54,623 bases of DNA from a virus (lineage: Duplodnaviria; Caudoviricetes), in the IMG/VR virus record IMGVR_UViG_3300037882_002110, positions 1-54,623 of that record; one strand, given 5' to 3'. Shown piece by piece: positions 14,069 through 30,986 of the stretch. The number at the start of each line of letters is the position of its first letter. The stretch's first letter is position 1. The translations under genes and the position numbers were made by a program. The notes under the pieces are model-generated. The model was not told the origin of the DNA, searched no databases, and saw nothing but the letters and a program-made list of their open reading frames with translations.

Positions 14069-14097
14069 TTTTCGGCCCCCACGACCCGGAACTTTAG
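14069..14097 (-). promoter_or_regulatory. Sigma-28-like promoter, copy 5
   Basis: CTAAAGT-N14-GCCGAAAA in the thyX-tmk gap. Confidence 0.75.
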
Positions 14098-14098
14098 T

Positions 14099-14776: not shown

Positions 14777-15017
14777 CCTTGGGCTTCTCCATCTTTGGTA
14801 TTATGCGTTGACCCTTGGGGGGAGGCCAATTGCCCTCGGCTTCCATCCGGACAGCTTCGTTGTAATAGTGGGCGCAAACGTCTTCGTCTGTGGAAGAACC
14901 CACGAACCTGCCTTTGAATTGGGCTCTGAAGACCTTCAACGTGGCGTCATAGTAGACACCCTTGTGTTTGGACGTTTTGGTCTTCGGGAACGGCGGGTCT
15001 TTTCTCTTGCTAGCCAC
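14769..15017 (-). CDS. Stand-alone AP2-like DNA-binding domain protein
   Basis: TSKHKGVY..FRAQ..VG..E..AH.YNEA. Confidence 0.65.
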   Translation of the reverse strand: MASKRKDPPFPKTKTSKHKGVYYDATLKVFRAQFKGRFVGSSTDEDVCAHYYNEAVRMEAEGNWPPPKGQRIIPKMEKPKDD

Positions 15018-15023
15018 GATTGT

Positions 15024-16154
15024 TCACCCTCTCCAGATGAAGGAGTTGTGGTCCGCGCCGGTCCCGAGCATGACCACTTGGAGCCCCGTCACGTCTTCCA
15101 TCCTGTCCACGTAGGCCCTGACCTTCGGATGAAGCTCGCGGAATTCCTTCTCTCCTCCCCGGACGTCCGTCGACGACCAATGGATGTAGGAGGTGAAGTT
15201 CAGCACTATCTTCGTGGCCCCGCAGAGCTTAGCGGACTTCTCAAGGAGGGCCCACGAGGGGGTGAACACCCGGCGCAGTCGCTTGGTGACCGTGGTTAAT
15301 TCCTTGGACAGGAGAGCCTGAATCTCAGCTTCTGGCATTTCGGCGTCTACCCCGATCTGCTCCCAAGATGTCTCTTCCGAGTCGTCCATGAAACTGCCAG
15401 ACGAATGGACTTCGCCGGACTCGTCCTTGAAGTTTCCGACTCGAATCGGATACGACCTGCAGTTCATGTAGACGTCGCCCACCTGATGGGGCAGAATCAT
15501 CATGTCGGCTAGAGCCTGCTGAGGGGTGCAGTTCCGATAGGTGCCTTTGCGCAGTTCCGTCCCGTAGTCTAGTGACAGGGCGAATCCCTGGGCTACTTCG
15601 TGAAGGAACCCTCTGCCCTTAGCAAGCTCTGCCTGGATACCTTCGGCGAAGTCCCAAGGCTGAAGCGAAAGCTCCGGCGTCTTTTCACCCCAAAGCAGGG
15701 TGTCTCGCATCCGCATGGCCTTCATTGCGTAGGTAGCCCCGGCCCCAGACATGGTAGAAGCCACGTGAGCCACCGAGAGACCCCCACCAGGGGCTTCGAG
15801 AGCCTTATGGTGGGCCTGGGTGATAGCAGCCCTGGCATGAATGAAGAGGTCATAGCCGGGTTTGTATCCGGTGTGCTCAAACTCTTTGATGAGCGTATCG
15901 ATCTCGAAGGACGAGTTTGGCCCTATCCAGGCTTGCGGTTTGTGGCCCGTGATTTTGGGCAGAAGGCAGGGAGACGGCATGGCCTTGAAGACGAACTCGG
16001 CTTCAGGACTGCGCACCCAATGGCCTGCGTTAGGCCCGTTGCATGTGGCTACGTTCGGAATCTTGAATATATCCGCTAGTCTGGTAGATACAGCACCCTT
16101 GCCAGACGAACCGTGACTCGCGTCGTACAACAGATTATATGCTCCAAGCTTCAT
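15024..16154 (-). CDS. purZ: PurZ-like adenylosuccinate-synthetase paralogue (N6-succino-2-amino-dAMP synthase candidate)
   Basis: GSSGKG in place of PurA GDEGKG; GPNAGH, EVAQGF.L, RSYPIRVG, ELTTVTKRLRRVF; LNF in place of PurA TKLD; GGAG RBS before ATG 16154. Confidence 0.8.
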   Translation of the reverse strand: MKLGAYNLLYDASHGSSGKGAVSTRLADIFKIPNVATCNGPNAGHWVRSPEAEFVFKAMPSPCLLPKITGHKPQAWIGPNSSFEIDTLIKEFEHTGYKPGYDLFIHARAAITQAHHKALEAPGGGLSVAHVASTMSGAGATYAMKAMRMRDTLLWGEKTPELSLQPWDFAEGIQAELAKGRGFLHEVAQGFALSLDYGTELRKGTYRNCTPQQALADMMILPHQVGDVYMNCRSYPIRVGNFKDESGEVHSSGSFMDDSEETSWEQIGVDAEMPEAEIQALLSKELTTVTKRLRRVFTPSWALLEKSAKLCGATKIVLNFTSYIHWSSTDVRGGEKEFRELHPKVRAYVDRMEDVTGLQVVMLGTGADHNSFIWRG

Positions 16155-16217
16155 CTGAAAACTCCATCCATAAACAGTTTCAGTAGTAGTCAAACGAAGA
16201 AGGAGTGGCGCTAGAGT

Positions 16218-16817
16218 TTAGGCTAGCGACGCGATCGTGAATCCTCTGTCAGTGAGATAGGCTCTGAGAGACACCAGCAGCTTCCTTGACGCCATGGCGT
16301 TGAATCCCAGGATGGACACGAGAGTCGTGAATGGGACGTCTTCATATTGATTGTACGATGGACAAGCCAGCGACTTTTCTCTAAAAGCTCGCAGGGTGCG
16401 ATCAGACGGAGCAATCAGCTCCTCCACAAGAATCGCGGCCCTTGGGGTTTTACGGGTCTTCGCCCACTCCCTCATGGCCTCGCAAAGCTCTCGATGGCAC
16501 ACCGCCTGGAATCCAGTCACCAAGGTGCTGAGAGGAGACTCAAACTGGTCCGAGAACTCTTCTGTGTCTCTCGTGTCCAGTCTCGCATCGAGGAATCGCC
16601 CCAAGTCCACGAACCTGTTCTTGAGGACAGTCATCACCATCCCCTTCTTGTCGGACTCGGACAAATGGTCAAGCTTCGGCAAGAGCTGCACCAGCTTGAG
16701 GCAGAGTTCCTGCTCCACATCCTCAACCGTCATGAGCCTGGACTTCTTGCATTTCTTGGCGTAGAATTTGACCATCTTCAAATAGGGCGACAGATCCACA
16801 GGGCAGGCTCCTTCCAC
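16218..16817 (-). CDS. Phage RNA polymerase sigma-factor-like protein
   Basis: Region-2-like EDVEQELCLKL...KNRFVDLGR; possible C-terminal HTH. Confidence 0.6.
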   Translation of the reverse strand: MEGACPVDLSPYLKMVKFYAKKCKKSRLMTVEDVEQELCLKLVQLLPKLDHLSESDKKGMVMTVLKNRFVDLGRFLDARLDTRDTEEFSDQFESPLSTLVTGFQAVCHRELCEAMREWAKTRKTPRAAILVEELIAPSDRTLRAFREKSLACPSYNQYEDVPFTTLVSILGFNAMASRKLLVSLRAYLTDRGFTIASLA

Positions 16818-16829
16818 AGGGTGCAGGCG

Positions 16830-19706
16830 TCAGATGGTCGGGGACTCCTTCTTGCAGACGGTGATTCGAACTGTCTGCTCCACCGTGTCGGTGTAGAAGA
16901 TGTCGTCTCCGAATGAAGCGGGGTCGATGGGCTTTTCGTCGATGATATTGGTGTGTACCACGTAGGCCATACCCATGTCAAGTACCATATCCCCGATATC
17001 GCGACGAAGCCCGTGACAAACAAAAACGAGAGAGTCCTCGGACACGGATTCTATCTCACTTTTAACGGCACCACCCCAAGAGCGTCCGATTTCAAAGTCG
17101 ATTCGTGTGGGGCAGATCATCCAGGGATGCGCGGTCTGGATGTTGTCCTCGCCGTGGAATTTCAAGATTCGCACCAGTTCGAAGATCTCGCCCGGATAAA
17201 CGTCAAGCTCCAAGGAGTCGTGCACCGTGGCCAGGAATCGCGTTCTCATGCCACGGTCGACCAGCTCTTTGCCTACTTTCTTGACCATGTCGAACACGAT
17301 GTCAGAGCCTGCGCTCTGGATGGGGTAGTTGACCGCTAAGCGCTTAGCTTCCGCGATCTCCCATTCTTTCTTCGAGAACGCTTGCGGGACCGGAATGACT
17401 CTGCCAAACATCGTCTGCACGGTGCCCGTTTTGAGTGTGAATTTCTCGACGGACTTTTTCCACGCGGCCAGATGTCCGGCCCCAGAATAGAAGTTCCGCA
17501 TGATGGAACCCGCTTCTTCCTTGGAGCACCCGATTTCGTCTGCTAGCCCTTCCTCGCCTTTGCCGTACAGGATGGCGAAGTTCACCCGTTTGCCAATAGA
17601 GCGCTGGACCGAGGTGACTTCTTCAGTCTTGCATTTGTAAATGACAGCAGCCGTGGCCGTGTGCGCGTCCACGCCTTGCTTGAACGGCTCGATGAAACTT
17701 GGTTCCTGGGCGACAGCGGCCACAACCCGAAGTTCGAGCTGGCTAAAGTCCACGGCCACGATGATTCCGCCGTCCTCCCTCCACCGAGACGAGATGAGCC
17801 TCTTGAGGTCGCACCTGTTGGGCATTGAGTGGAACGCGCTGGCGAGCCTTCCAGTCACAGTCCCGTTCAGTCTGAACTCAGGCTTGTAGAGTCCGTTGTG
17901 GGCCGAGTTCGGCATCGAATAGACGTAGTCCTTAAGCAGCTTCGATATGCGCTTGAACTCGGAAACTTTCTTCACGAAGAGCTTGGCCTCGCGCCATTTC
18001 GCAGCCTTGACCGGGTCCTTCTCTTCTAACGTTTCCAGATGGGTGTCGACGAGAACTTTGCTTAGAAAGAACCCTCTGGCGTCCTTGTTGAGGGACGGCA
18101 TTTTCTTCTCAGTCATGAAGTCTTCCATGGCTGGCAAAGCGTAAAACCTCTTGTCGTAGGCGATTTCGGAAACCTTAGCCGCGTTGTTCAAGTTGAAAGC
18201 GTTCTCCCGGAGCTGTTCCATGGAGACTGGTTTCTTCTTTTTGAGATTCGCCTCGATGAGAGGCGCGAGATAGGGAGCCGTATAGGCGTCGACGATGGGC
18301 AGAGCGTCGAGTTCGGCACGCTTGCGAACCAGATATTCGGTGTAAGAAGTCTCCAGGAACTTCCACGCCTCCATATCCATATACATCCCAGAAGTTTCGC
18401 AATCAGCGAACATAGGGATAGCCTCGGTCACAAACGCGGCCATCCTCTTTTGACCTTCAGGTATGACATGCTCGAAATGCTTAAACAGCAAGCGGTTGAA
18501 ATAGGAGTCGAGAGCCGCATACTCCCCTAGGACCGATGTAGGGATATTGGAGTAAGTCCGTTCTTTGATAAGCTTGAATTTCTTGAGGTACTCTTGGACC
18601 TGAAGTTCCCAGTCGTCTTTGACGTCGAAATACCTGCGGCAGAGACCCTTGAGAGAATTGTCGATTCCAAAGCCCATCGAGTTGAACTGAACCGACGAGT
18701 TGAAGGTATCGTTCAGAATCCTGATCTTGGATGCCTTCGCGACATTGTGATACAGAATCCAACGGATATCGAACAGAAGGTTGTGACCAACGATAGGGAT
18801 AGTCTCGATGACCTCCCCTATCTTGGACAGCAGCTTGGCCCGTTCCGACTCAGACACGTTGAACGGGGTCTCTGGGCACTTGAAGGATAGGTCCTTGTGG
18901 TGAACCACATTAGTGACCTCTAGAGGGATGGCGATGCCTCTGGAATCCGCGTCGTGGGCAAACGATGCCATGATGATTCGGCCATCCCAAGGGGTCAGGG
19001 CCGAAGTTTCAAGGTCAAAAATGACGTAGGAAATCTCGCCAGCCTTGTAGAGCCTCAAGGCTTCGTCCATGTAGGCCATGGAGTCGTCGGGATTCAAGGT
19101 GGCGAACCGTTCATTAGACTCTAGATTGTTGTGGTTCTTGCCATCCACCTGCAGGTGCTCTCCACCCCCTCTAAACACTCTGTCGATGTAGGTCTTGAGT
19201 TCGGAGGTCATCGCCGGAGATTTTTCGGCGTGTCGTGGGTCCAGGTTCACCGTGAGGTCGAATTTCACACCCCCAGCCGTAGCCGGTCTGGTGGAACCCC
19301 TGTCCTTGGTTATCTTGAATTCCTTATCCTTGAGCAGGGATTTGGCCACCAGCGCTCCAAAGCCCATGACCCGGGGTTTGGATTCGAACGACTGCAGTTC
19401 CATGCCCAGATAGTTCGAACATTGGGATATCTGTTTATCCGAAGGTTCGGCGAAGGACTCCCGGGAGATGGAATTCTCATACTTCGGACATTTGACCAAA
19501 TAGGTCAAATACCAGGAGTCATCATCCGGTAGCATGGCTCGAATCGACGTGGCCACGGGGCCCTCAAACGCCTTCCCGAAATCGTCTTTCTTTTCTGGAA
19601 ACGGAAGGATGAGAACCACATCTGGATTCGTGGAGTTCCCCATCCCAGCGGTTCTTGGGGTCTGGCATTGAGAAAAGAGACCACACTCTCTGCAAATCTT
19701 ATTCAT
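16830..19706 (-). CDS. polA: Family A DNA polymerase with N-terminal UDG-like domain and 3'-5' exonuclease
   Basis: CREC..YLTYLVKC UDG-like N-terminus; FDLETS exo I; DFSQLELR, RSIGKRVNFAILYG, VHDS motifs A/B/C. Confidence 0.95.
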   Translation of the reverse strand: MNKICRECGLFSQCQTPRTAGMGNSTNPDVVLILPFPEKKDDFGKAFEGPVATSIRAMLPDDDSWYLTYLVKCPKYENSISRESFAEPSDKQISQCSNYLGMELQSFESKPRVMGFGALVAKSLLKDKEFKITKDRGSTRPATAGGVKFDLTVNLDPRHAEKSPAMTSELKTYIDRVFRGGGEHLQVDGKNHNNLESNERFATLNPDDSMAYMDEALRLYKAGEISYVIFDLETSALTPWDGRIIMASFAHDADSRGIAIPLEVTNVVHHKDLSFKCPETPFNVSESERAKLLSKIGEVIETIPIVGHNLLFDIRWILYHNVAKASKIRILNDTFNSSVQFNSMGFGIDNSLKGLCRRYFDVKDDWELQVQEYLKKFKLIKERTYSNIPTSVLGEYAALDSYFNRLLFKHFEHVIPEGQKRMAAFVTEAIPMFADCETSGMYMDMEAWKFLETSYTEYLVRKRAELDALPIVDAYTAPYLAPLIEANLKKKKPVSMEQLRENAFNLNNAAKVSEIAYDKRFYALPAMEDFMTEKKMPSLNKDARGFFLSKVLVDTHLETLEEKDPVKAAKWREAKLFVKKVSEFKRISKLLKDYVYSMPNSAHNGLYKPEFRLNGTVTGRLASAFHSMPNRCDLKRLISSRWREDGGIIVAVDFSQLELRVVAAVAQEPSFIEPFKQGVDAHTATAAVIYKCKTEEVTSVQRSIGKRVNFAILYGKGEEGLADEIGCSKEEAGSIMRNFYSGAGHLAAWKKSVEKFTLKTGTVQTMFGRVIPVPQAFSKKEWEIAEAKRLAVNYPIQSAGSDIVFDMVKKVGKELVDRGMRTRFLATVHDSLELDVYPGEIFELVRILKFHGEDNIQTAHPWMICPTRIDFEIGRSWGGAVKSEIESVSEDSLVFVCHGLRRDIGDMVLDMGMAYVVHTNIIDEKPIDPASFGDDIFYTDTVEQTVRITVCKKESPTI

Positions 19707-21021
19707 ATCCAGACTCCAATTCCACAAACGAACATATGCTCATATCTCTTTTAGCTCGAATTTTGGTTTTGCCCTTTCCGCGTCTGACCATATCAACGAA
19801 CAAGATGCCGTTGTCAGATTCGTCGGTGAAGTTCAGGGTAGTGATGGAATACAGCAGGTGGGCCTTTTTTGCCGAGTGGGCCAGATTGTCAGCCTTCAGA
19901 AGCTTGTCCTGGTTGGCGTTATCCCAGGAGTCTCGTTGGGGCTGGGCGAAGGTGACGATTGGACACTTCAGAGAGTCTGCCAGCGAGATGAGGTCCATGT
20001 AGATCTTGCCAGAGTTCTCATACATAGACTCGTCTTTGCCCCCAGACGGAATCAAAAGGTCGTCGTAATCTATGAGAACGATGTCTGGCTTCTGACCAGT
20101 CTTGGTCATGACCTTCGTTATCCAAGCCCGGATGGTCGTCGTGTTGATAGTGTTCGGCGACCAGTAGTTCATGTAAAGGTTGGGCTTGACCTTGTTGTAC
20201 TTGTTCATCCGCTGGGCATACTGCGGGTTGTTCTCCGAGATGATATCGTCGATGGTCATCTCGGTCATGTTCATCGCATACTTCATCGCCAAGTCAATAA
20301 GCTTGATTTCGAGCGAGATATGGAAGACGACCTTACCGGCTTTCAGGTTGGCTGCACCGATGCAAACCCCTAGACTCGTTTTGCCGCTCTTGGGAGGAGC
20401 GCAACACACGTGAAGTTCCCCAGCCCCGAAGCCCCCCATCAGGCAGTCATCCCAAGACGGGAACCCTGTGGTGCAAAGCTTCGACCGGTCGTAGGCCAGT
20501 CTGTAAATTTCTGGCAAAGAAGCGAGGTCCTTGAATTCCATCCCGACTCGGTTACCGACCCCGACCGCTACCGCATCGTCGATGAGTTTGATGCATCTCT
20601 CGTAAGGCTGGTTCTGTTCGAACACCTCGACGGACTTGTAGAGAGCGATCTTCAGGGCCTGCCTGCGAACGAACGAAATCATGGACTCAATGACGGAGCG
20701 GTCGGACCCAACGTCCACCTTGGCTATCACCCTGGCTTCGGTCGCGAGTTCCTTGGCCATGGCGGAGTTCACATCGCGCCCGTGCATGATGTATTCTTCG
20801 ACCTTGACCGACAGGAGGTCCGAATCTATTGGTGTCTCGTAGGTGTAGACGTGGTTTTTGATTAGCTCCAGCAGGATTCTGCAAGGGGACGTTTCGAAGT
20901 ATTCTGGCTTGAGTTCCGACCCATATTGGTGTGCAAAGGTCACATCAGACATCAGAAGCCTGAGGACCCGTCGCTGGAACTCAAGCGAATACATAGACTC
21001 GACAAGGTCTTCACTATCCAC
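19699..21021 (-). CDS. Replicative DNA helicase (DnaB/T4 gp41-like)
   Basis: APPKSGKT Walker A, HISLE, IVLIDY, TFAQ. Confidence 0.9.
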   Translation of the reverse strand: MDSEDLVESMYSLEFQRRVLRLLMSDVTFAHQYGSELKPEYFETSPCRILLELIKNHVYTYETPIDSDLLSVKVEEYIMHGRDVNSAMAKELATEARVIAKVDVGSDRSVIESMISFVRRQALKIALYKSVEVFEQNQPYERCIKLIDDAVAVGVGNRVGMEFKDLASLPEIYRLAYDRSKLCTTGFPSWDDCLMGGFGAGELHVCCAPPKSGKTSLGVCIGAANLKAGKVVFHISLEIKLIDLAMKYAMNMTEMTIDDIISENNPQYAQRMNKYNKVKPNLYMNYWSPNTINTTTIRAWITKVMTKTGQKPDIVLIDYDDLLIPSGGKDESMYENSGKIYMDLISLADSLKCPIVTFAQPQRDSWDNANQDKLLKADNLAHSAKKAHLLYSITTLNFTDESDNGILFVDMVRRGKGKTKIRAKRDMSICSFVELESGYE

Positions 21022-21100
21022 GTGCCGCGACTCCTTGGAACAGAGCCAGGGTCAAAAGAAGACGGAGTTTAAAGAGTTCAGCTTCCCTGGGGGTCAGCAT
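21014..21100 (-). CDS. 28-aa mini-ORF between primase and helicase
   Basis: AAGGAG RBS then ATG; overlaps the helicase start. Confidence 0.35.
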   Translation of the reverse strand: MLTPREAELFKLRLLLTLALFQGVAARG

Positions 21101-21137
21101 TTTAGGCTCCTTTGAGGGTGGTCCACAGAGAAAACGT

Positions 21138-22067
21138 TTACATGTGGACACGACGAGCTGTTCGGACAAGAGACTTGAACTCTCTGGTTGAAAGCTCATC
21201 TGGGTCTTTGCCGAGCGGCAGGATGACCGAGTTCACTTTGAACCCGGCCTGCAGAAATCTTCGATGCATTCGATTCCGAGTCTGGACAGTCACGTCCTCG
21301 GTCCCGTCGAGACAAACATAAACTTCATCCGACCTCGACCGTAGCTTGGATATCTGTATGTCGGTCAAGTTCTTTCCCAAGAGGCAGACGGCGGGAATCC
21401 CTGTGGACCTATGGACCGCGATCGCGGATATGATACCCTCGCAAAGAATGAAAGGGTCGGAAGTCACAGAATCCAGACCATAGATCACACCCGATTTGTC
21501 TCCGACCGAGTTCAGATACTTAATATTGGCATCAATATAGCTACGACCAACGACGTAGGTGACTTCTCCGTCTTCCACGAATGGGAACAGAACGCGCCCT
21601 GACCACCTGGAGACCTTCGTCTCGCCCTCGAAATAGGTCACCCCTGTTCGGAGACCATACTTTTCTATCTCAGCGTCGGTGAACCTACGCTTCTTGGTCA
21701 TGAAGTCATAGGCTATTGGTGTCTTCTCTTTGGTCAGAGGCAGAGAAATCAGGTCTAAATCGAATTTGACCGTAGGGAATTTTGGTCCTAGGAGTCTGGC
21801 TTTCAGGGTGGACAGGTTCTCGGAAACCGCATTGCTGTCCTGAGCAGCCAGCCCGAGTTCCCTGATGGCACCCCTAGATTCGCATCTGTAGCAGAAGAAA
21901 AGGCCCTTCCGGACATTCACTGTCAGGTTCTTGTGGGTGACCCGATGCCCCAGAGACTCGCAAAATGGACAGTATGACCTGACCTCCCCCTTGGGAGATA
22001 TTTCGCCTAAGCTAGCTAGGTCAAATGGTGCCATCGTTTGGTCCGAACTCTCTTTCAAGGTATTCAA
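21138..22067 (-). CDS. DNA primase (Zn finger + TOPRIM)
   Basis: CPFC..CYRC; KYLNS; LCEG; CLDG; KDPDE; exact start uncertain. Confidence 0.9.
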   Translation of the reverse strand: MNTLKESSDQTMAPFDLASLGEISPKGEVRSYCPFCESLGHRVTHKNLTVNVRKGLFFCYRCESRGAIRELGLAAQDSNAVSENLSTLKARLLGPKFPTVKFDLDLISLPLTKEKTPIAYDFMTKKRRFTDAEIEKYGLRTGVTYFEGETKVSRWSGRVLFPFVEDGEVTYVVGRSYIDANIKYLNSVGDKSGVIYGLDSVTSDPFILCEGIISAIAVHRSTGIPAVCLLGKNLTDIQISKLRSRSDEVYVCLDGTEDVTVQTRNRMHRRFLQAGFKVNSVILPLGKDPDELSTREFKSLVRTARRVHM

Positions 22068-22968
22068 GCGGATGAAGCAGGAACTCGCGTTCTCTGATGA
22101 GAGAAGTCTCTAAAGAAGCGAACGCGTCGGTGCAAATAGTAAAACTAAGTCCAGACTGCTGGAACCCGGTCACTATCCGCTTCATATCGGCCACCGAGCG
22201 GACAGCGCCCGAAGCTAGGTTCGACGACGGACACACCTCGAACATAATCTCACGGCTTTTAGCAGCTTCCACGAGGTCAGGGGACTTTAGTATCCAAATC
22301 CCATGCCCGATACGCCTCACGTTAAGCTCATGGATGACATAGTCAAGCTCGGACTCGGTGGCATCCGTTAAGACTTCACCCGCGTGACAGGTAGTTTCTA
22401 AACCTTTGTCCGACGCTTGATGAAAAAGCGCCCTGAAATTCTCGTAGGGCTGGACACCGTAAGGCCCAGCAAGATCTATGGCCCTCACTCCGTCCGAGGA
22501 TTTGTATTTGATGGCTTTAGCCAAGATGGCTTCATTCTCGTTCTGGGTGCAGTCGGTACCCATGCAAAAGGCCAAACTACCGGATATACCGTAAGTCCAA
22601 CAAGCTCTCCTCATCCCGGACAGAGCAGACTGGATAATGGCGTCGAGGTCGATTTGTCCCTTAAGGGACCTCTTGACCGGATTGAAGCGAACTTCGAGAA
22701 CGTCGACTCCAGACAGAGCGGCATGTTTGAAGGCGTTAAACGACGACAGCTCCACACCCATAGGGGAGGACTGCAGACGGTCTATCTCATGGAGGAGTGA
22801 CAGATATACTTCCAGAGATTCCCTTTTGCCCATCTGCATTGTCCGGGCGAATTCTTTGTAGGTCCGAACTGAAAGCTTGACCCCAGATTCAACGACAATC
22901 TCCCAAAGAGCGTCAGAAGAGACAGAGCCTGAGAGGTGCGCGTGAGTATCTATATTCAAAGCGGACAT
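22021..22968 (-). CDS. add: Adenosine/AMP deaminase family protein
   Basis: HAHLSGS, EVRFNP, IDLAG, HAGE, RRIGHG, EVCPSSN, CTD. Confidence 0.92.
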   Translation of the reverse strand: MSALNIDTHAHLSGSVSSDALWEIVVESGVKLSVRTYKEFARTMQMGKRESLEVYLSLLHEIDRLQSSPMGVELSSFNAFKHAALSGVDVLEVRFNPVKRSLKGQIDLDAIIQSALSGMRRACWTYGISGSLAFCMGTDCTQNENEAILAKAIKYKSSDGVRAIDLAGPYGVQPYENFRALFHQASDKGLETTCHAGEVLTDATESELDYVIHELNVRRIGHGIWILKSPDLVEAAKSREIMFEVCPSSNLASGAVRSVADMKRIVTGFQQSGLSFTICTDAFASLETSLIREREFLLHPLEYLEREFGPNDGTI

Positions 22969-22973
22969 ATAGA

Positions 22974-24614
22974 TTAAACTTCCTTGTCGTTGTGAGAAGC
23001 TATTTGACGCCAGAATTCTTTGTCGTCTGTCAGAATAGTGGCTCCAACCTGTTTGTACAGATGAAGCCGGGTTCGGGAATGATTCAGCAAAAACCCGTGA
23101 CTTTTGTCCATGTAGTCGAGGACGTAGACCCGATTGAGGCCAGATTTTTTCTTACGAACCCCTCGACCCAGTCTTTGCAGAGACTTGATGGCAGATTTGC
23201 CCCCACCAGCCAGGATCACGGCCCCAATGGAGGGAATGTTGAAACCCGTATCTAGAGCCGACGACCCTATCAGGATATCGATTTCACCCCCGGCCACCTG
23301 ATAACGAACTGAATCGTAGTCGATAGGGGAATCTTCGACCTGACCCAAGGGGTCGACAATAAGGCCCTTAGAGCCCCCGAACGCGCAAACTACCCTGACT
23401 TGCCTCAAAGCCTCCATCAGGGTCCGGGCATGTTCCAGACGTTGCACCAGGATCAGGACTTGATGGCCCCATTTGACCATTTCCAGCGCGGATTTCACTA
23501 TATGCAAATTCCTGTCCCTGGACTGAACGATATTTTCGTCGTAGACCTTCTGAAAGTTGAAGCCCGACGACGTGGGAGAGCCGATAGGCTTGAAACACAT
23601 CACGGGTTCCGCGATGTATCCGTTGTCGATCAGGAATTTGTAGTCTATGGAGAAAATGGGGCCACCGGACATAGCCCAAACCATGGCATCGCCAGGGTCT
23701 TTGGTGGGGTCCTCGTTGAGGAACGGAGAACCCGTCATAGCTATCTTAAACTTGTACTCGTGACAATGCTTTACGATAGAAGAAACCGACTCCGACCGCA
23801 TCCCGTGCCCTTCGTCTATGACGAAAGTGTCTGCAGCTTCAAGGAGTTCCAGAGTCTTCGGGTCGTTGGCCTTGATTCCCGAAGCCAGCGACTGGAACGT
23901 GGCTACGGTTATCAGATTTCCCTTCTTAGACCTACCGTCCCAGGACGACACTCTGGATTCGAATAGCGGCTCTACCTTGAAATCGTCCACGAACTGGTGA
24001 ATCAGGGCCGTGGTCGGGACCACCACAACGGCCCTTTTGGACGAGGTCAGGTCTCCCCTGTCCAAAAGAGTCTTTAGGAAGCCTATTGCGCAAAGGGTCT
24101 TTCCAGCCGACGTGGGGAGGACGAGTATCCCAGATTTATGGGTAACTGCAGCGTTGATAGCAGCCACCTGATATGGATACAGCGAGAACTCCCCGACTTG
24201 GAGTTCGGATAGTTTCAGCCTGTCCTTGGGTGTGGGTTCCACGTCGTCGACGAGTTCGACCGGATACGGGGATTTTTTCTTGATGAGAGAATACAAATTC
24301 TTGTAGGTCTTCAGATTGTCCAAGGACCCCCAGACCAGACGAATCTGGACCATGCGAGTGACTTGAAATATAGGAAGAGCCTGTTCGGCAGGCGACCCCG
24401 GTTCTCTGAAATAGACCTTGTTCCCGAGAATCCGAGTCACTTTACAAATCTGATTTCGCTTAGAACCCTGAGAAGGCTTGATATAGTCTTCCGGCAATAG
24501 GTCCTTGAGAGTCCCCTCTCTGACATACCAAGTGAAGGTAGCGTTCAGGAAGCTGACCTCGGCGTCGGTGGCTTCTATCAACCTTATCAGGTAGCCCTTA
24601 GCTTTGAATTTCAC
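22974..24614 (-). CDS. uvsW: UvsW-like SF2 helicase
   Basis: LPTSAGKT, DEGH, MTGSP, QRLGRGVR. Confidence 0.88.
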   Translation of the reverse strand: MKFKAKGYLIRLIEATDAEVSFLNATFTWYVREGTLKDLLPEDYIKPSQGSKRNQICKVTRILGNKVYFREPGSPAEQALPIFQVTRMVQIRLVWGSLDNLKTYKNLYSLIKKKSPYPVELVDDVEPTPKDRLKLSELQVGEFSLYPYQVAAINAAVTHKSGILVLPTSAGKTLCAIGFLKTLLDRGDLTSSKRAVVVVPTTALIHQFVDDFKVEPLFESRVSSWDGRSKKGNLITVATFQSLASGIKANDPKTLELLEAADTFVIDEGHGMRSESVSSIVKHCHEYKFKIAMTGSPFLNEDPTKDPGDAMVWAMSGGPIFSIDYKFLIDNGYIAEPVMCFKPIGSPTSSGFNFQKVYDENIVQSRDRNLHIVKSALEMVKWGHQVLILVQRLEHARTLMEALRQVRVVCAFGGSKGLIVDPLGQVEDSPIDYDSVRYQVAGGEIDILIGSSALDTGFNIPSIGAVILAGGGKSAIKSLQRLGRGVRKKKSGLNRVYVLDYMDKSHGFLLNHSRTRLHLYKQVGATILTDDKEFWRQIASHNDKEV

Positions 24615-25927
24615 TTGGCCGCGTCCAGGAGGATTTGAGCAGCCTCCTTTTCCTTCTCTGTAAGCAGAGTTTGCTGCTTGCCGAAGAACTTCATCTCGTA
24701 GGCCCAGATTTTGACGATGTTCTTAATCTTGGTCAACGGAGACAGAGCGGCAAAATGCATGTAGATCTTGTAGTCCGACCACTCTTTGATGATAGGGAGT
24801 TCTTCACACTTCTTCCGGTAGATGCGTGAGGTCTGGATGTTAAGGTCCAGCATTTTGGGTTCGTCCACAGGTTCCTTGGCGTAAGAATCCGGCCAGGACA
24901 CTGTCAGGAAGTTGCCGTTGGGCTTGAATATCGCGTTTTTGCGGAGGAATGCCCACTGGGTTTCCCAAATGTCCACCCCTTCTTCGGGGTTGAGGAAATA
25001 AACCAGATCGTAGTCCTTCATGCCGGTGAGCTTGTTCTTAATCATCTTGATAGAACACTCGTAAAACCGCTTTTTGGACCCATCCTCGTAAGTCACTTCC
25101 TTGGCAGTCTTGGCTGAAGACACCATACCCCGAATAGAAGCGTAGTGCTTGATCCCGTAGCCACCCGAAGAGTCCAGGACAGGGCCGTGACGGGAGAACG
25201 TTCCGACTTGCGTTGTCACCTGATTCACCACGATGAAACAGGAATGGGTCAAACCAAGCTCGGTCGTGATGTCTCTGAACATCTCACGAATCTTACGGGG
25301 TTTCTCCATCATGCCACCGGGGTTCATGGCCTTTTCTTTGGAGTCGTCATCCTCGTCGTCCGTCGACCCTTTGACCTTCTTTTTGGCTGTCTGGAAAGAG
25401 GCTTCTTTGGTCTTCTCGGTGGTGACAGCCGCGATTGTGTCCCACACGATGAGGAGCTTCATGTTCTTTTTGACTATGCAGCGCTGCAGGAACTCTTTAA
25501 TCTTGGTGTGACCACCCTCGACCGTGTCGGTCTCGTGAAAGACGAACCTGTCGATAGGGCACCCCATGTAGGAGGCTCGAACCTTGTCGATGGCAGACTC
25601 AGACTCTATCCAGAGAACCGCATATCTGTCATCGTTTCTGGCCTTCCAATAGTTGGCGAAAGCTTTGGTGAACTCTTGGGCCAGGGTACTCTTTCCGGAC
25701 GATTCTTTCCCAAAAAGCTCGACAACTTTACCCCCAGGCAGTCCACCGCCGAATGGGATGTCGATCGGTGGGCAATTGAGGGGAAACATGTGGACAAGGT
25801 CCGAGGACAATTCCTCCTGAAAGGTCTTGACCTCGTCGTCTCCATCCAAAAAGTCAGACATGGAAAAGTCTGCAGCTTCTTGGGGTTCAGGAATTGGGTC
25901 TTTGGCTTTCGCTTTCTTAGTCGCCAT
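24611..25927 (-). CDS. recA: RecA/UvsX-like recombinase
   Basis: GGGLPGGKVVELFGKESSGKST, ESE, IVWDT, VNQV, SGG.GIKHYAS. Confidence 0.92.
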   Translation of the reverse strand: MATKKAKAKDPIPEPQEAADFSMSDFLDGDDEVKTFQEELSSDLVHMFPLNCPPIDIPFGGGLPGGKVVELFGKESSGKSTLAQEFTKAFANYWKARNDDRYAVLWIESESAIDKVRASYMGCPIDRFVFHETDTVEGGHTKIKEFLQRCIVKKNMKLLIVWDTIAAVTTEKTKEASFQTAKKKVKGSTDDEDDDSKEKAMNPGGMMEKPRKIREMFRDITTELGLTHSCFIVVNQVTTQVGTFSRHGPVLDSSGGYGIKHYASIRGMVSSAKTAKEVTYEDGSKKRFYECSIKMIKNKLTGMKDYDLVYFLNPEEGVDIWETQWAFLRKNAIFKPNGNFLTVSWPDSYAKEPVDEPKMLDLNIQTSRIYRKKCEELPIIKEWSDYKIYMHFAALSPLTKIKNIVKIWAYEMKFFGKQQTLLTEKEKEAAQILLDAAK

Positions 25928-25930
25928 ATT

Positions 25931-26200
25931 TCAACTAGACCTCTTTGAAGACAAAGACAAAAATTCCGCTTGCCGAATCGAATGGTAGTTGTCCAAGAAA
26001 TAATCAAGCGAGCAGGTCAGGACCCCAAAGTTCGTGGATTTGGGGTCGTTGTCGACTCTGGGGATAATCCCATGGAAATCGTCGATTATCACACAGGTGT
26101 TGGCTGTGACCTCTGGGGTCGTCAAATCCAAGAGGTCGGGATGGCGACGGGCGATTTCCGTTGCCTGGAACTCAGTACACTTAATGAACTTGACTTTCAT
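25931..26200 (-). CDS. Hypothetical protein
   Basis: ATG 26200 just after the dUTPase stop. Confidence 0.6.
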   Translation of the reverse strand: MKVKFIKCTEFQATEIARRHPDLLDLTTPEVTANTCVIIDDFHGIIPRVDNDPKSTNFGVLTCSLDYFLDNYHSIRQAEFLSLSSKRSS

Positions 26201-26204
26201 AATC

Positions 26205-27356
26205 TCACCGTCCAGAAGAGCCCCAGCCGTTGGCCCCGCGCGTTCCAGGAACATGTTCAAATTCAGCGACCTCTTCCCATACTTCAGGGTCGAAAACGGG
26301 ATTGAACTTAAGCTGACCAATCCGGTCCCCGGGTTGGATTATGTACGTCTCTTTCGAGAAGTTGGTCAACACGACTCTAATTTCGCCTTGGTAAAAGGCA
26401 TCACACAGACCCAAGGAAGCCTGGATGCCTCTTCGGGACAGACCTGACCGACCACGCAGGTCATAGCTCCACCCTTCCCCGACTTCTACCGCGAGCCCAG
26501 TCCCAACGTTGATATGGTCTCCAGGTGCCACTTCAGCCCCTTCGACACCATAAACGTCATAAGCTCCGTCCTGTTCGTATCCTTTGGTGGGTTTAACAGC
26601 TTCCGGATGGATTTTTTTCCATCTAACAATCAGTGGTTTTAACAAGTTGCCTCCGACATTTCTAAGGTTGACGTCTGGATGGATTAGTCGAATCTGACTT
26701 AACACCTCGCGAAAGTGTTTTTCGTCAGCGTCATTCTTGGCCAAATTGGCTATTTTAGAGGACCACACCACATTGTTTTCTACGTAACCAGACTTGCTAT
26801 CTAGCCTCTCCAGATGAGCGGAACACAGATGTTTTTCACCGAACCTGAGCATCAACCCGAAGTAGTGACATCTACCGTTCTGCTCTGACCACAGTTTGTT
26901 CAGGTAATCTGGAGTCAGGTCAAATTCTAGTCCGAACTTCTTGGAATGCTTGCGCTTAGCGTACACCAAACGCCGTATCCAATGTTGAATATTTGACTTG
27001 TTTAAAGCTGCATTTGCGATATCTTTTCTAACATTCGACGAACTCAACTTTTTGCAATCCACACATACAGCGGACAGACCATCATGCCTAGCTTTGTTTT
27101 TAGAAAACGCTGCCAAAGTCAAAAACTGGCCACATGTGTTGCACCACTTAAGCTCGACTCCGTCGTCTCTGATTTGACGCGTAGGACAATTGTGTAGTTG
27201 GTATAGCTTTCGAACTTCCCTGAGGAATTCTGCATTACAGCGGGTGCACCTGACTACGGCTCTAACCCTTGGCATGGATTCGACTCGGTCAGGGTGGATG
27301 TTGAACCGCTGGAAAGTTTCTTCTTTTAAAAGCTCAACTCGCCCTTTGCCATACAC
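26205..27356 (-). CDS. dut: HNH-like endonuclease fused in frame to a trimeric dUTPase
   Basis: N-part CxxC pairs and ERLDSKSGY..NNVVW..AN.AKN; C-part all five dUTPase motifs (AYD, RSG, DAFYQGE, RIGQ, RGANGWGSSG). Confidence 0.88.
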   Translation of the reverse strand: MYGKGRVELLKEETFQRFNIHPDRVESMPRVRAVVRCTRCNAEFLREVRKLYQLHNCPTRQIRDDGVELKWCNTCGQFLTLAAFSKNKARHDGLSAVCVDCKKLSSSNVRKDIANAALNKSNIQHWIRRLVYAKRKHSKKFGLEFDLTPDYLNKLWSEQNGRCHYFGLMLRFGEKHLCSAHLERLDSKSGYVENNVVWSSKIANLAKNDADEKHFREVLSQIRLIHPDVNLRNVGGNLLKPLIVRWKKIHPEAVKPTKGYEQDGAYDVYGVEGAEVAPGDHINVGTGLAVEVGEGWSYDLRGRSGLSRRGIQASLGLCDAFYQGEIRVVLTNFSKETYIIQPGDRIGQLKFNPVFDPEVWEEVAEFEHVPGTRGANGWGSSGR

Positions 27357-27424
27357 TTTTTAACTCATCCCTCAGTCAAATGTCCGGCCATTTACCAGTT
27401 TTTCGACTCAAAACGGCACTCCCG

Positions 27425-28372
27425 CTAGTCTTCCTCCGAAGGTGTCGTGGTTTCCTTCTTGGACATTTTCTTGATGGCGCTGGCACACGAGAATTCATGT
27501 GGGCAATCGCCACACACTTCCGTTTCCGGATTGTAAACCTTCGGATTTGAGAAGCACGCCGGAGCCCCAGCCGGACGAGGGGTGGACGTGGAAGAAGCAG
27601 TCTTAGATTTCTGGGCTTCCTTCTTCAGACCGGCAGGTTCTTCATCAGCGTCATGGTCGTTATGACCTTTCACCGACCCTGTCTCAGCCTTCATCATGAG
27701 ATTGTTTTCGAAATGGTCACGGAGGGCATCCGCCATCTCCTGAACTTCTTTGACTTTGTCGTCCGAGGGGTCTGGAAAGATTTTGTCGAGGTTGTAGAGC
27801 TTGGACAGAATGGCTTCGATCCCATCTGCTGTGGGAGCAATAGCACGGGCCGACATCGACGGACGGATGTCGAAGGCCCCGCCCTTCTTTTTACGATGAA
27901 CTCGAAGGTCACGACCGAGCTTCGGGTCGAAGAAAACCCGCTCATCTTCGTCTTCCCAGCACGCCATGATGAGGTCGATGAAGGCTTTAGACCCAGACGC
28001 GATGTGGACCTGATTGGGGTCGATATTCGCCTTGGTTTTGTCAGACAAAATCAGAGCGTTGAAGTTGATCTGGGGTGCAGAAGCCATTCTGGAAGTGTCG
28101 ATGCGATGCTCGAATTCCGTGAGGACGTTGCACACGGGGCATTCCAAATCATAGATGCGCAAACATTTGCACATCTTGTTGTCTGGCATCTGATAGTGGG
28201 ACATGCCGATCTTAAACGGCATTTCCATTTGTGGGTGTTTGGGCAAAACACGGATTTTGACTTCCTCAGTCCCGTTTGGGAACTTGTAGAATTCAAGATC
28301 TCCACCACTGCGTCCAGGGGTCTTACCAGAGAGGACCTTCTTGAGGAAACTGACGCTGTTAGCATTGGCCAT
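27425..28372 (-). CDS. Single-stranded DNA-binding protein (T4 gp32-like)
   Basis: IRVLP..HY..C..CPVC, FFDPKLGRD, acidic C-terminus; replication context. Confidence 0.75.
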   Translation of the reverse strand: MANANSVSFLKKVLSGKTPGRSGGDLEFYKFPNGTEEVKIRVLPKHPQMEMPFKIGMSHYQMPDNKMCKCLRIYDLECPVCNVLTEFEHRIDTSRMASAPQINFNALILSDKTKANIDPNQVHIASGSKAFIDLIMACWEDEDERVFFDPKLGRDLRVHRKKKGGAFDIRPSMSARAIAPTADGIEAILSKLYNLDKIFPDPSDDKVKEVQEMADALRDHFENNLMMKAETGSVKGHNDHDADEEPAGLKKEAQKSKTASSTSTPRPAGAPACFSNPKVYNPETEVCGDCPHEFSCASAIKKMSKKETTTPSEED

Positions 28373-28417
28373 TGTCTAGGATGCTCCTGTTGTGACTGGT
28401 CTATGATGAGAACGGGG

Positions 28418-29038
28418 TCAGGCAGAGGGTAAATGTGATTCGAATACCGGGTGCGACCCGGGGATGTATCGATGGAGGAGTTCTTCGAAGGGCAGGAGGA
28501 TGAAGAACCCCCGGTCGGCTGCTCTCCAAAAGAGCACCGTGGAATCCTCTCCGAATTCACCATCGAAGGAAGCTTCGAAATCGGCGACTTTCATCATGGC
28601 CAGACTTGGGTATAGGTTCTTGGAGAACACTACCATGGGTTTCTTGTCTATGCCTGATTTTTTGACGTCACGTTCGGCTTGAGCGAACCAATCTAGGAAG
28701 GACTTCTCAGCGGCCTTGGTGAAGACAGACTCTAACTTCCACCCTTGCCGACACTTGCATTCGATGACCCAGGGCAGACAACCAGCCACCGTTGGGTCCT
28801 TGGGGGTGATGTCCCCCACCGGGGTCCAGCCACCGGACATCGGAGTCCGCTTAAACTCCACCCCGAACTTTTCTGTAAACAGCTTTGCGATCCTGCGCTC
28901 AAACGCACTCCCCTTGGACCTGCCATTTACCGGCTTCTTCGGAGCCTTGACTTCCTCAACCGGGAGAGGTGACTTTGATATCAATGCCCGCAATTTTTGA
29001 TTCGTATTCTTTGAGCTGCTCGACCGAGACTTGGACAT
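28418..29038 (-). CDS. Holliday junction resolvase (PD-(D/E)XK)
   Basis: SKGSAFER.IA..F.RTPMSGG..GDI..IECK. Confidence 0.85.
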   Translation of the reverse strand: MSKSRSSSSKNTNQKLRALISKSPLPVEEVKAPKKPVNGRSKGSAFERRIAKLFTEKFGVEFKRTPMSGGWTPVGDITPKDPTVAGCLPWVIECKCRQGWKLESVFTKAAEKSFLDWFAQAERDVKKSGIDKKPMVVFSKNLYPSLAMMKVADFEASFDGEFGEDSTVLFWRAADRGFFILLPFEELLHRYIPGSHPVFESHLPSA

Positions 29039-29318
29039 TCTCTACCCCTGCTTTGTGGATGGGTTCGGTATTGGTCCTAGGAATATGGCCAACATGCATG
29101 AAATTCACAGATTCCAGAGATTCGCCGGGGATTCGAAGACCGGCCAAAACAGCGATCGCTCTATTGTCGAACTTGTTTTGGGGTTCAGCCTTCAACTTGG
29201 CCACGACCTCGGCGTCATCCCGGTCCGAGTTCTCCATGATGACCTGGAGAGCCTGAACGTTTTCTTTGGCTGGAGAAAAGGTGATACCGACGACTTTGCC
29301 CGAATATAGTGTGGTCAT
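28956..29318 (-). CDS. HIRAN domain protein
   Basis: KVVGITF..L.AEPQNKFDNRAIAV..HVGHIPR. Confidence 0.8.
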   Translation of the reverse strand: MTTLYSGKVVGITFSPAKENVQALQVIMENSDRDDAEVVAKLKAEPQNKFDNRAIAVLAGLRIPGESLESVNFMHVGHIPRTNTEPIHKAGVENVQVSVEQLKEYESKIAGIDIKVTSPG

Positions 29319-29324
29319 TGTAGT

Positions 29325-30980
29325 TCACTCCAAGTAGGATACGCCGTCTCTCTTGACAGCGTGGATGAATTGATTGAATCTGGACTTAAGCTCGCTCATG
29401 TGGGTCACTACATATATACACTTCTCCTGACCATACATTTCCTCCAGAGCTTCCAAGACAGAAGACACCCCGGAAGCATCCAGCGAATCGAACACCTCGT
29501 CAAAGACTGCGAGATTGAACGACACACCAGACGAGTGTTCCATTAGCTTCTGTATGGAGAGAACGATAGCCACGTCGAACCGACGCTTCTCCCCCCCAGA
29601 CATCCCGTTGAACTCGACCTGCTCTCCCCCGTCGAAACATTGAATTTCGAGACCGGATTCTTTGGGTGACAGAGAAATCCGACAGGTCATGGATGAGAAG
29701 AAGAAACCGATAATCTGAGACAGGATTCTGTTGAGGGTCTCAAGGTGTCCCCCCAGGACTCGCGACCTGAAGACCCCAGACGGGGACAGGATGTCATACA
29801 GAGCTTGCAAAGACTCCCGCTTGGACTCCAACGATAGAAGCTGCTCTTGGACGGCATTAGCATTCGAGGCCAGCTCCATCAGCTTCTCAGACTTCCCCTG
29901 TATATCCACGGACTGGGACAAGGACGCGAGTTCAGCGGCAAGTCTGGTCAGATTGGTGTTGACCTGAGCCCTAGCTGTCTCTCGGGCGTTGCGCTCCCTC
30001 TCGTAAACCTCCAGCTTCTTGGACCTCAAGACCGCCCTATGGTTCAAGTCCTTCAAAATCTGAAGTTCTTCTGTCAGGCTAACGACAGCCGCTCTTTGGG
30101 CTTCGATGTGGCTTTGTTCAAACGGACGATTGCAGGCCATGCAGGAAGAGTTTATCAGAGACTCTTTAGCAGACTCGACCGCGCGTTCCTTCATCCTGAG
30201 TTCCACACCCAGGGCCTGGATTTTCTGGAGGGCTCTGTCGAGAGCTTCTGCCTGAGAATCCAAATTCGGGATCTCGGCAAGCTGGAATTCCTGGTCCTTG
30301 ATCTTGGATTGGATGTCCAGTTCTCTGTCCGAGGTGATGGAAGACAGGACTTCAATTTCCTTACGCAGAGTGGCGACTTCTTTGTCCAGAGCAGCGTAGG
30401 ACGCGGATTGAATCTTCAGGGACTTGTCCAGAGATTTTATCTTGGGGCCCAAGTTCTCCCGAAACGAATCCCATATGCCCATTTGAACGACTTCCTCGAA
30501 GAACACCTTTCGAGGAGTAGGGGACAACCTGGAGAAGTTGACTGGCATTCCCTGGGCTATAAGAACCGTGGAAATGAAGGTTTCGTACGAAAGTGGTATT
30601 AGCTTAGCTATCTCAGCGTCCACCATGCTCGAAAGCCTGTGAGACACATTCTCGCCATCTCGGAACAGATGAACCTGGGATTCAAATTCCCTATGCTTAA
30701 GGTACCTGTCTATCCTGAAACCATGGCCCGCGACCCGGAATTCCAAGGAGACCTTCAGGTTTCCGCCCTTCTTGTGGGTCGGGTCCCTTGGGTCTCTCGG
30801 AGTCTTCTTATAAATGGCGAACAGGATAGCTTCGACTATTGAAGACTTCCCGCTAGCATTTGACGACCCAGTATCTGTATTTAAACCAGATAATAGGGTT
30901 TGCCCAGGAAGGAACTCCAGGTCAAATTCTCTGTAAGACAGGAAATTTTCGGCAGAAATCCTGGTGAATTGTATTCTCAT
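29325..30980 (-). CDS. sbcC: Rad50/SbcC/T4 gp46-like ATPase
   Basis: ENFLSY, NASGKSS, CMAC hook, MSGGE, FDEVFDSLD, VTH. Confidence 0.92.
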   Translation of the reverse strand: MRIQFTRISAENFLSYREFDLEFLPGQTLLSGLNTDTGSSNASGKSSIVEAILFAIYKKTPRDPRDPTHKKGGNLKVSLEFRVAGHGFRIDRYLKHREFESQVHLFRDGENVSHRLSSMVDAEIAKLIPLSYETFISTVLIAQGMPVNFSRLSPTPRKVFFEEVVQMGIWDSFRENLGPKIKSLDKSLKIQSASYAALDKEVATLRKEIEVLSSITSDRELDIQSKIKDQEFQLAEIPNLDSQAEALDRALQKIQALGVELRMKERAVESAKESLINSSCMACNRPFEQSHIEAQRAAVVSLTEELQILKDLNHRAVLRSKKLEVYERERNARETARAQVNTNLTRLAAELASLSQSVDIQGKSEKLMELASNANAVQEQLLSLESKRESLQALYDILSPSGVFRSRVLGGHLETLNRILSQIIGFFFSSMTCRISLSPKESGLEIQCFDGGEQVEFNGMSGGEKRRFDVAIVLSIQKLMEHSSGVSFNLAVFDEVFDSLDASGVSSVLEALEEMYGQEKCIYVVTHMSELKSRFNQFIHAVKRDGVSYLE

Positions 30981-30986
30981 CCAGGG

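Follow-up and report, generated by a model that had tools for sequence, protein, structure and literature searches.

Introduction

For phages with a Z genome the synthesis of dZTP is one task and the exclusion of dATP from their DNA another. Two ways of solving this problem have reportedly been described, DatZ/MazZ and DutZ/DmtZ, of which the second was presented in 2026 as a case of functional convergence. In phages of the S-2L type PurZ is accompanied by a nucleotide-pool control made up of DatZ, an HD-domain dATP triphosphohydrolase, and MazZ/DUF550. In PurZ0 phages the Dut-like enzyme DutZ hydrolyses dATP and dGTP to the monophosphates, and DmtZ, a dAMP hydrolase/transferase of the NDT family, destroys dAMP (PMC12884076). 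In the present study a phage gene for a 315-residue protein of the adenosine deaminase (ADA) family was analysed, which lies in the viral record IMGVR_UViG_3300037882_002110 (54,623 bp, the whole of this stretch being called the window), within a long minus-strand operon of DNA-replication genes that also carries purZ.

We put at about one half (0.5) the probability that this enzyme acts on dAMP or deoxyadenosine and makes the removal of dA irreversible, as DmtZ does. The pairing of PurZ with a deaminase looks like a variant of the Z-genome nucleotide-pool module and is plausible as such. The original prediction, made from the DNA alone, had regarded the combination as undescribed, and in agreement with this no searchable paper was found in which an adenosine or dAMP deaminase is connected with PurZ or with Z phages; the main text of PMC12884076 and of bioRxiv 10.1101/2025.10.22.683976 does not use the word 'deaminase', the supplements with lists of associated domains lying outside this comparison.

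Material and scope of the searches

The window spans an entire IMG/VR record, namely a linear contig of viral origin whose completeness CheckV puts at 39%, so that datZ or mazZ may sit outside it. It is numbered G000 in the comparison with other IMG/VR records (G001 to G009). Pfam and PHROG scans of the open reading frames (ORFs), together with six-frame searches with hidden Markov models (HMMs), revealed no HD, MazG, DUF550 or NDT domain in the window, the DUF550 HMM search having been run without a positive control genome. The statement of the original prediction that no DatZ or MazZ is recognisable among the ORFs was confirmed by these scans, which cover the full record, this being identical with the window. 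The deaminase protein itself contains none of the known adenine-exclusion domains (HD of DatZ, MazG of MazZ, DUF550, NDT of DmtZ).

Linkage of the deaminase to PurZ

The 389-residue protein encoded 5.8 kb from the deaminase is, judged by its matches and its P-loop, a Ser13-type PurZ. Its best PDB matches are the PurZ proteins of S-2L (7odx, E 6e-24) and phiVC8 (6fm1, E 5.6e-23), followed by PurA (2d7u, E 3.2e-15), and in an alignment with the PurZ of G001 the P-loop reads GSSGKG, with Ser at the position of Asp13 in PurA. This replacement is the criterion for PurZ (PMC12884076, section 24). The designation of the virus as a purZ phage in the original prediction could thus be upheld, and the phage probably replaces adenine by 2-aminoadenine (Z) in its DNA.

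In profile-guided scans of IMG/VR no more than three further records (G001, G006 and G007) proved to have a full-length relative of the deaminase, while a single-protein pattern scan with the deaminase found no relative and a scan based on PolA only G001 again. A Ser13 (GSSGKG) PurZ is encoded in three of these four records, at the distance already given in the window, at 8.7 kb in G001 and at 2.0 kb in G007; the count leaves out G008 and G009, which have an 80-residue family match only and no PurZ, and three further loci. As a background, PurZ occurs in about 0.3% of phage records (149 of 50,697 in GenBank), and 147 phage PurZ sequences among 53,887 viruses are given in section 24 of PMC12884076.

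G001 (67.5 kb, 56% complete) keeps the order UvsW-deaminase-primase-DnaB-PolA of the window with proteins that are 31-46% identical. Two genes upstream from its deaminase it encodes PurB, an adenylosuccinate lyase whose best PDB matches are all adenylosuccinate lyases (E 6.8e-45). G007 (19 kb, 9% complete, GC 30%, with a T4-like portal) detectably shares only PurZ and the deaminase with G000 and G001; its deaminase belongs to a different sub-branch, with SDG for TDA and 31-32% identity, and occupies a different position. In G006 (16 kb, 5% complete) the deaminase is present and no purZ was found in the fragment. Since G000 and G001 are related, these records represent two independent lineages with PurZ and deaminase, not three; the association with purZ goes beyond a single coincidence. 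The expectation that deaminase and purZ would occur together across phages stood for three of the four IMG/VR records with the full-length gene and did not extend to the whole clade, which also occurs without visible purZ (see below).

Two features of these records were noted beside the linkage itself. The PurZ of G007 (L117 13278-15650, -) is split by an intein, which was recognised by Intein_splicing and LAGLIDADG_2 and contains a homing endonuclease of the LAGLIDADG type, its exteins being 47-52% identical to the PurZ of G001; to our knowledge no intein in PurZ has been reported. Between the UvsW-like gene and the primase of G001 (L004 7914-11790, +) four extra genes are found, which encode the adenylosuccinate lyase, a porin-like protein, the deaminase and a permease of the TauE/SafE family. 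The porin-like protein is a beta-barrel with a structural match in the Atlas to Porin_4/Porin_O_P (TM 0.75-0.82). A porin and an anion permease within a phage replisome operon were unexpected.

Deaminase or NDT-like gene beside purZ

In the reverse comparison seven PurZ-bearing records related to the PurZ of the window were considered. The three with the deaminase (G000, G001 and G007) have no NDT, HD, MazG or DUF550 domain in the available sequence, and three of the four without an intact deaminase (G002, G003 and G004) have an NDT-like gene 1-3 kb from purZ. In G004 (246 kb, 91% complete) the NDT gene is clear and is joined by a dCTP-deaminase/dUTPase-like gene, both at most 3 kb from purZ; in G002 and G003 the NDT-like genes are weak, sub-threshold matches about 1 kb upstream of purZ, and G005 has no NDT-like gene. 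This arrangement is the one described for PurZ0 phages (PMC12884076). Deaminase and NDT-like gene appear to alternate next to PurZ, and of all observations this hints most strongly at the deaminase taking the place of DmtZ, on a base of seven fragments and with two weak matches.

G004 additionally carries a remote adenosine-deaminase-family gene of the TDD type (L093 1501-2445, +), in which HRHL is immediately followed by an in-frame TAA where the ribose-binding Asp would be expected. The gene may be a pseudogene, the stop may come from an error in sequencing, or it may be read through.

The deaminase and its active site

The ORF of the deaminase starts with ATG and runs without internal stop. 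It matches PF00962 (A_deaminase) with 136.1 bits, against a cut-off of 27, over residues 7-307 of 315, which places it in the adenosine deaminase superfamily, and its AlphaFold2 model (pLDDT 92, pTM 0.90) is a (beta/alpha)8 barrel. The six metal and catalytic residues H9, H11, H195, E198, H222 and D281 are all present; they are invariant in the sequence sets A1 (23 sequences) and A2 (7 sequences), as well as over a clade of 18 rows with 39-58% identity. The zinc ligands we take to be HxH, the His of HAGE and the Asp of TD(D), and the catalytic residues the Glu of HAGE and the His of GHG. PMC6451127 was also used for this assignment of metal and catalytic roles. An intact gene with HxH, HAGE, GHG and TDA had been read from the DNA beforehand, and these motifs were found again as H9-A-H11, C-H195-A-G-E198, G-H222-G and T280-D281-A282. 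On this complement of residues we propose that the protein is an active zinc-dependent purine 6-aminohydrolase. That it is a catalytically dead or decaying remnant with no role is extremely improbable: the frame is intact and preceded by a motif resembling a ribosome-binding site, the six residues persist at the divergence just given, the second Asp of TDD, here Ala282, is missing from the whole wider branch, and synteny is kept between phages with far-diverged replisome proteins (33-46% identity), which outweighs the observations that Ala282 stands at a position whose mutation inactivates MAPDA and that a PurZ-bearing jumbo phage, G004, has an adenosine-deaminase-family gene with an in-frame TAA.

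By scores, motifs and phylogeny the protein is not a canonical adenosine deaminase; it is a member of a distinct, uncharacterised branch of the superfamily. TIGR01430, the equivalog model for EC 3.5.4.4, gives 144.8 bits, short of its cut-off of 216.55, and all other Add equivalog models also stay far below their own cut-offs. The subfamily is marked by HAHLSGS, QSSP, RFNPVKRS, CHAGE, GHG and CTDA. The Asp following HxHL, which in mouse ADA (Asp19) binds the 5'-OH of the ribose, is absent: the window protein and all seven A2 sequences read HAHLSGS, the aligned Add structures and the classical outgroup rows HLDG. The second Asp of TDD is likewise replaced, by Ala in the window, by Ala or Ser in the A2 rows and by Gly in a sister bacterial branch and in G007. 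In a database of 5.8 billion proteins the nearest relatives are one at 58% and five at 42-46% identity; further out follows a large set at 33-40% from Myxococcota and Patescibacteria, automatically annotated as adenosine deaminase. A quick maximum-likelihood tree of 85 rows united the window protein with all short-form relatives in the 18-row clade (SH-aLRT 100), which joins the Myxococcota/Patescibacteria branch with the classical adenosine deaminases outside. Common to this wider branch are QSSP, an NPxKR loop and the lack of the second Asp.

A Foldseek search of the PDB with the model returned at least 287 matches at E <= 0.001, led by adenosine deaminases with a TMq of 0.82-0.85. As a means of discriminating nucleoside from nucleotide enzymes the fold search fails, as bacterial Add (0.85), ADAL (0.82), MAPDA (0.79) and the deaminase domains of Cad1 (0.74-0.78) all lie between 0.74 and 0.85. 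Bacterial Add (6n91 of Vibrio cholerae, 6n9m of Salmonella), which shares the fold as well as the zinc and catalytic residues, is the best match both in sequence (E 1.1e-24) and in structure (24-26% identity). In contrast to Add, the phage protein has HLSG for the HLDG with the ribose-binding Asp, an extra QSSP and a basic NPxKRS loop, and a shorter C-terminus, in addition to the replaced TDD Asp and the low TIGR01430 score.

The N6-methyl-AMP deaminases MAPDA and ADAL (8qch, 6ijm/6ijn), small single-domain enzymes of the ADA fold that act on nucleoside monophosphates, share HAHL(N/S)GS, SSP and a basic residue after strand 2 with the phage protein; in the pairwise alignment with human ADAL the second motif appears as (Q/T)SSP and the basic residue as part of a loop. 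The phosphate pocket of Arabidopsis MAPDA is formed by Asn17, His65, Thr98 and Lys100 (PMC6451127), to which Ser13, Asp63, Asn96 and Val98, followed by Lys99-Arg100, correspond here by way of the human ADAL alignment, the step from Arabidopsis to human numbering being our own assignment. The Ser at the position of ADA Asp19 is therefore that of the phosphate-binding Asn17 of MAPDA, and Lys99-Arg100, invariant in the clade, falls into the loop of MAPDA Thr98/Lys100. These departures in the active site would fit a 5'-phosphorylated ligand, without proving one. Unlike in MAPDA, Asp296 is represented by Ala282 and His65 by Asp63, the basic residues stand one or two positions off, and no sign of N6-methyl specificity is seen.

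The same alignment bears on the alternative that a modified or non-adenine purine nucleotide is the substrate, be it N6-methyl-(d)AMP, which a MAPDA/ADAL-like sanitiser would remove when methylated dAMP arises from degraded host DNA, or a 2-aminoadenine ribonucleotide or nucleoside, whose deamination would turn stray ribo-Z into G and keep Z out of RNA. In its favour, classical ADA accepts 2,6-diaminopurine nucleosides, motifs are common with human ADAL, and the loss of the Asp296 equivalent implies altered base recognition. We nevertheless regard this alternative as distinctly improbable: a Z-to-G activity on deoxynucleotides would undo the work of PurZ, no sequence sign was recognised of a pocket that would take up a 2-amino group or an N6 substituent, and ADAL ranks under bacterial Add in structure as well as in sequence. 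MAPDA, moreover, keeps and needs Asp296 (PMC6451127).

Cad1 of type III CRISPR systems and RdrB of RADAR are enzymes of the ADA fold that act on adenine nucleotides (ATP/dATP); RdrB was not among the Foldseek matches listed. The structural relatedness of the Cad1 deaminase domains, and the frequent position of phage anti-defence genes among the early genes, could indicate a role in counter-defence or host takeover, in which ATP, dATP or adenine-based immune signals would be deaminated as by Cad1 or RdrB, in this case for the phage. However, those are large, multi-domain, signal-activated oligomers encoded by the host, whereas the predicted phage protein is a lone barrel with neither sensor nor oligomerisation domain, placed in the middle of a replisome operon with conserved synteny. 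Its closest relatives are chromosomal genes of housekeeping type in Rickettsiales and the linkage to PurZ would be left unexplained, so that we hold a counter-defence function to be very improbable.

Distribution of the deaminase clade

Apart from these records, phages have hardly any genes of the adenosine deaminase family. No PHROG matches the deaminase, and among 50,697 GenBank phage records only eight match it, with 27% identity or less; of three that were inspected, one is a bacterial chromosome (nadA, argJ and tRNAs) and two are unverified records. A scan of bacterial and archaeal species genomes yielded eight relatives with 41-46% identity, all from Rickettsiales or uncultured alphaproteobacterial metagenome-assembled genomes (MAGs). 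Five of these loci were annotated and are clearly chromosomal, genes for ribosomal protein L25, RpoD, DnaG and tRNA synthetases lying in their vicinity; L016 adds a sixth context of bacterial origin. In three of these six annotated contexts the direct neighbour is a dUTPase (L101), a dCMP/cytidine-deaminase-family gene (L100) or an HD-domain gene (L016), which was counted in favour of a role in the dAMP pool. In three loci (L103, L105 and L106) a Flavodoxin_4 gene follows the clade member, and the bacterial carriers (L100-L107, L016), Rickettsiales and uncultured alphaproteobacterial MAGs, are obligate intracellular and nucleotide-importing.

Metagenome contigs contributed 13 loci with relatives at 39% identity or more. 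The order UvsW-deaminase-primase-DnaB-PolA recurs in L010, L011, L012 and L017 as far as these contigs of 2-4 kb extend; L006-L008 and L013 are viral-looking, and L014 and L015 of the same set were assigned to neither group.

This distribution, together with the family match to adenosine deaminases and bacterial Add as the best structural match, could be explained by ordinary purine salvage, in which (deoxy)adenosine from host breakdown is recycled for purine and nitrogen and the nearness of purZ merely reflects a general neighbourhood of nucleotide metabolism. The chromosomal genes of Rickettsiales, the phage-like contigs without visible purZ and the porin-like and permease genes, which flank the G001 deaminase in the manner of an auxiliary set, would all accord with it. 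We consider it rather unlikely, in view of the score below the equivalog cut-off and the replacement of both ADA-specific aspartates, of the presence of PurZ in three of four viral records against its low background, and of the complementary pattern with NDT-like genes. In addition, without a PHROG family and with GenBank phages essentially devoid of the gene, the deaminase is not a common auxiliary gene of phages.

The replisome operon and other genes of the window

The position of the deaminase between UvsW and primase, with an overlap into the latter, was already part of the original prediction and agrees with both coordinates and sequence (Table 1). The deaminase starts 5 nt past the stop of the UvsW-like helicase gene, has an AAGGAAG Shine-Dalgarno-like motif 10 nt before its ATG and lies with its last 14-47 nt within the primase ORF. 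On this arrangement we propose that the deaminase and the replisome genes share one transcript and are coupled in translation. Promoters and terminators, scanned for in 13000-32000, were no more numerous than expected from shuffled sequence, and the scan was uninformative.

Table 1. Annotated features of the window, by position.
Feature	Position	Strand	Evidence
UDP-glucose/GDP-mannose dehydrogenase fragment (contig end), 533-aa family-2 glycosyltransferase, PAPS-reductase-like protein (auxiliary genes)	1-2375 (+) / 8699-9517 (-)	+ / -	PAPS-reductase-like: phrog_424 E 4.8e-40
Thymidylate-kinase-like nucleotide kinase	13450-14052	-	PF02223 E 2.3e-9, phrog_761 E 9.1e-16
ThyX thymidylate synthase	14099-14776	-	PF02511 E 1.9e-36
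82-aa ORF	14769-15017	-	no informative match
PurZ-type 2-aminoadenylosuccinate synthetase, 389 aa	15024-16193	-	phrog_1211 E 1.2e-39, PF00709 E 2.5e-22
199-aa sigma-factor-like ORF, between PolA and PurZ	16218-16817	-	weak Sigma70_r2 E 8e-4
Family A DNA polymerase PolA with 3'-5' exonuclease	16830-19727	-	PF00476 E 3.8e-60, PF01612 E 5.3e-10
DnaB-like replicative helicase	19699-21021	-	phrog_19 E 4.7e-51
DnaG-type primase, start overlaps deaminase stop	21138-22067	-	phrog_47 E 9.2e-39, Toprim_2
Adenosine-deaminase-family enzyme, 315 aa	22021-22968	-	PF00962 E 1.9e-39
UvsW-like SF2 helicase, directly upstream of deaminase	22974-24614	-	phrog_16 E 2.5e-65, ResIII/DEAD/Helicase_C
UvsX/RecA-like recombinase	24611-25927	-	phrog_97 E 1.5e-39
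Endonuclease VII/HNH-like N-terminus with C-terminal dUTPase domain (residues ~244-383), one ORF	26205-27356	-	PF00692 E 4.2e-16, phrog_135 E 5.9e-32, phrog_1035 E 9e-28
SPFH/Band 7 protein (435 aa)	42979-44286	+	
RyR-domain protein	46053-46421	+	
Staphylococcal-nuclease-like protein	51100-51537	+	
tmRNA	52926-53285	+	Rfam RF00023 full length, 101.7 bits, E 1.2e-38

Past the ORF with the dUTPase domain follow, in coordinate order, a gp32-like SSB, a PD-(D/E)XK nuclease and SbcC, with SbcD further on. The dUTPase domain had been overlooked in the original prediction, which was otherwise sustained as to gene, motifs, position and link to purZ; its interpretation as a whole is partly supported. 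From its sequence the domain is a candidate producer of dNMPs, an activity like that of DutZ being neither supported nor excluded. The endonuclease VII/HNH-like part and a complete dUTPase share a single ORF of 383 aa, and the dUTPase of G001 is a separate gene of 152 aa; the fusion may be an in-frame insertion of a homing endonuclease, or the true dUTPase start may be internal.

The 199-aa ORF beside PurZ was considered as a hidden analogue of DatZ or MazZ. It has a homologue in the same position in G001 (203 aa, 23% identity, E 1e-15) and was rejected despite this conservation because it looks sigma-factor-like and not like a nucleotide hydrolase.

Further features were noted elsewhere in the window. 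The PolA proteins of the window and of G001 (L004 15969-18962, +) have in common a conserved Cys-rich N-terminal extension of about 200 residues, for which a weak match to the uracil-DNA-glycosylase superfamily was obtained in G001 (E 0.009, below cut-off). The tag peptide of the phage tmRNA was given by ARAGORN as ASDPKRTGSLGPLVSRNF, the end of which differs from the usual ...LAA, and the same program found no tRNA genes in the window. The auxiliary genes towards the contig end and the three proteins of the plus-strand half are listed in Table 1.

Discussion

The preferred substrate of the deaminase we propose to be dAMP, otherwise deoxyadenosine, and dATP is less likely than either. The phage would have to keep dATP low while making dZTP from dGMP. 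The substrate would derive from dATP and degraded host DNA, possibly through the phage protein with the dUTPase domain, and the step from dATP to dAMP or dA would be reversible through host kinases unless its product is destroyed. Deamination to dIMP or deoxyinosine would be an irreversible sink, since host kinases could not re-phosphorylate these to dATP, and purine might pass via hypoxanthine/IMP back into the guanine branch, from which PurZ is supplied (dGMP to dSMP to dZMP), the returned guanine nucleotides serving both G and Z. By analogy, the deaminase would play the role of DmtZ in PurZ0 phages, an irreversible sink for dAMP derived from dATP (PMC12884076), or that of DatZ in S-2L. In contrast to DmtZ, which is unrelated in fold and chemistry and releases adenine by N-glycosidic cleavage, the phage enzyme would yield hypoxanthine nucleotides by hydrolytic deamination; in contrast to DatZ/MazZ, no HD, MazG or DUF550 domain being present in the window or in G001, it would act after, or instead of, the removal of phosphate.

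A number of observations weigh against this role. In the active site, the position of MAPDA His65 is taken by Asp63, which is unfavourable to phosphate binding, and that of Asp296 by Ala282; Asp296 contacts the five-membered ring of the purine at N7, and the D296A variant of Arabidopsis MAPDA has no measurable activity (PMC6451127), so that base recognition must differ here and the enzyme may act on something other than an ordinary adenine compound. As regards distribution, the clade is found outside PurZ phages in eight chromosomal loci of Rickettsiales and alphaproteobacteria and in one further bacterial locus, and the viral-looking contigs L006-L008 and L013 have no purZ within 5-10 kb on either side; for these reasons the clade is not Z-specific. 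None of the three inspected GenBank matches, out of eight weak ones, has PurZ, and the names of the 149 GenBank records with PurZ include Arthrobacter, Vibrio and Acinetobacter, among others. Of the three NDT-like matches, two score under the Pfam cut-offs. The nearest relatives of the dUTPase domain among GenBank phages are ordinary dUTPases of non-Z phages (35-38% identity), and the porin and permease flanks in G001 resemble an auxiliary-gene cassette as much as a nucleotide operon. Finally, the deaminase-bearing viral records are fragments, 5-56% complete, for which reason the absence of datZ, mazZ and dmtZ is not established.

Only tentatively can a wider claim be made, namely that the clade consists of deaminases of dAMP (or dA/dATP) and that PurZ, a Dut-type pyrophosphatase and an ADA-like deaminase replace DatZ/MazZ or DutZ/DmtZ as a third route of adenine exclusion, which would have been assembled at least twice, with different sub-branches of the deaminase, in large T4-like uncultured phages and would recycle adenine into the branch from guanine to Z.

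If the deamination of dAMP or deoxyadenosine proves true, the deaminase route would be a third and chemically different solution for phages with a Z genome, in which purine is recycled instead of discarded. A function would then also be assigned to an uncharacterised branch of adenosine deaminases that occurs in Rickettsiales, and the compact set of PurZ and deaminase could help to make Z-DNA in engineered cells.

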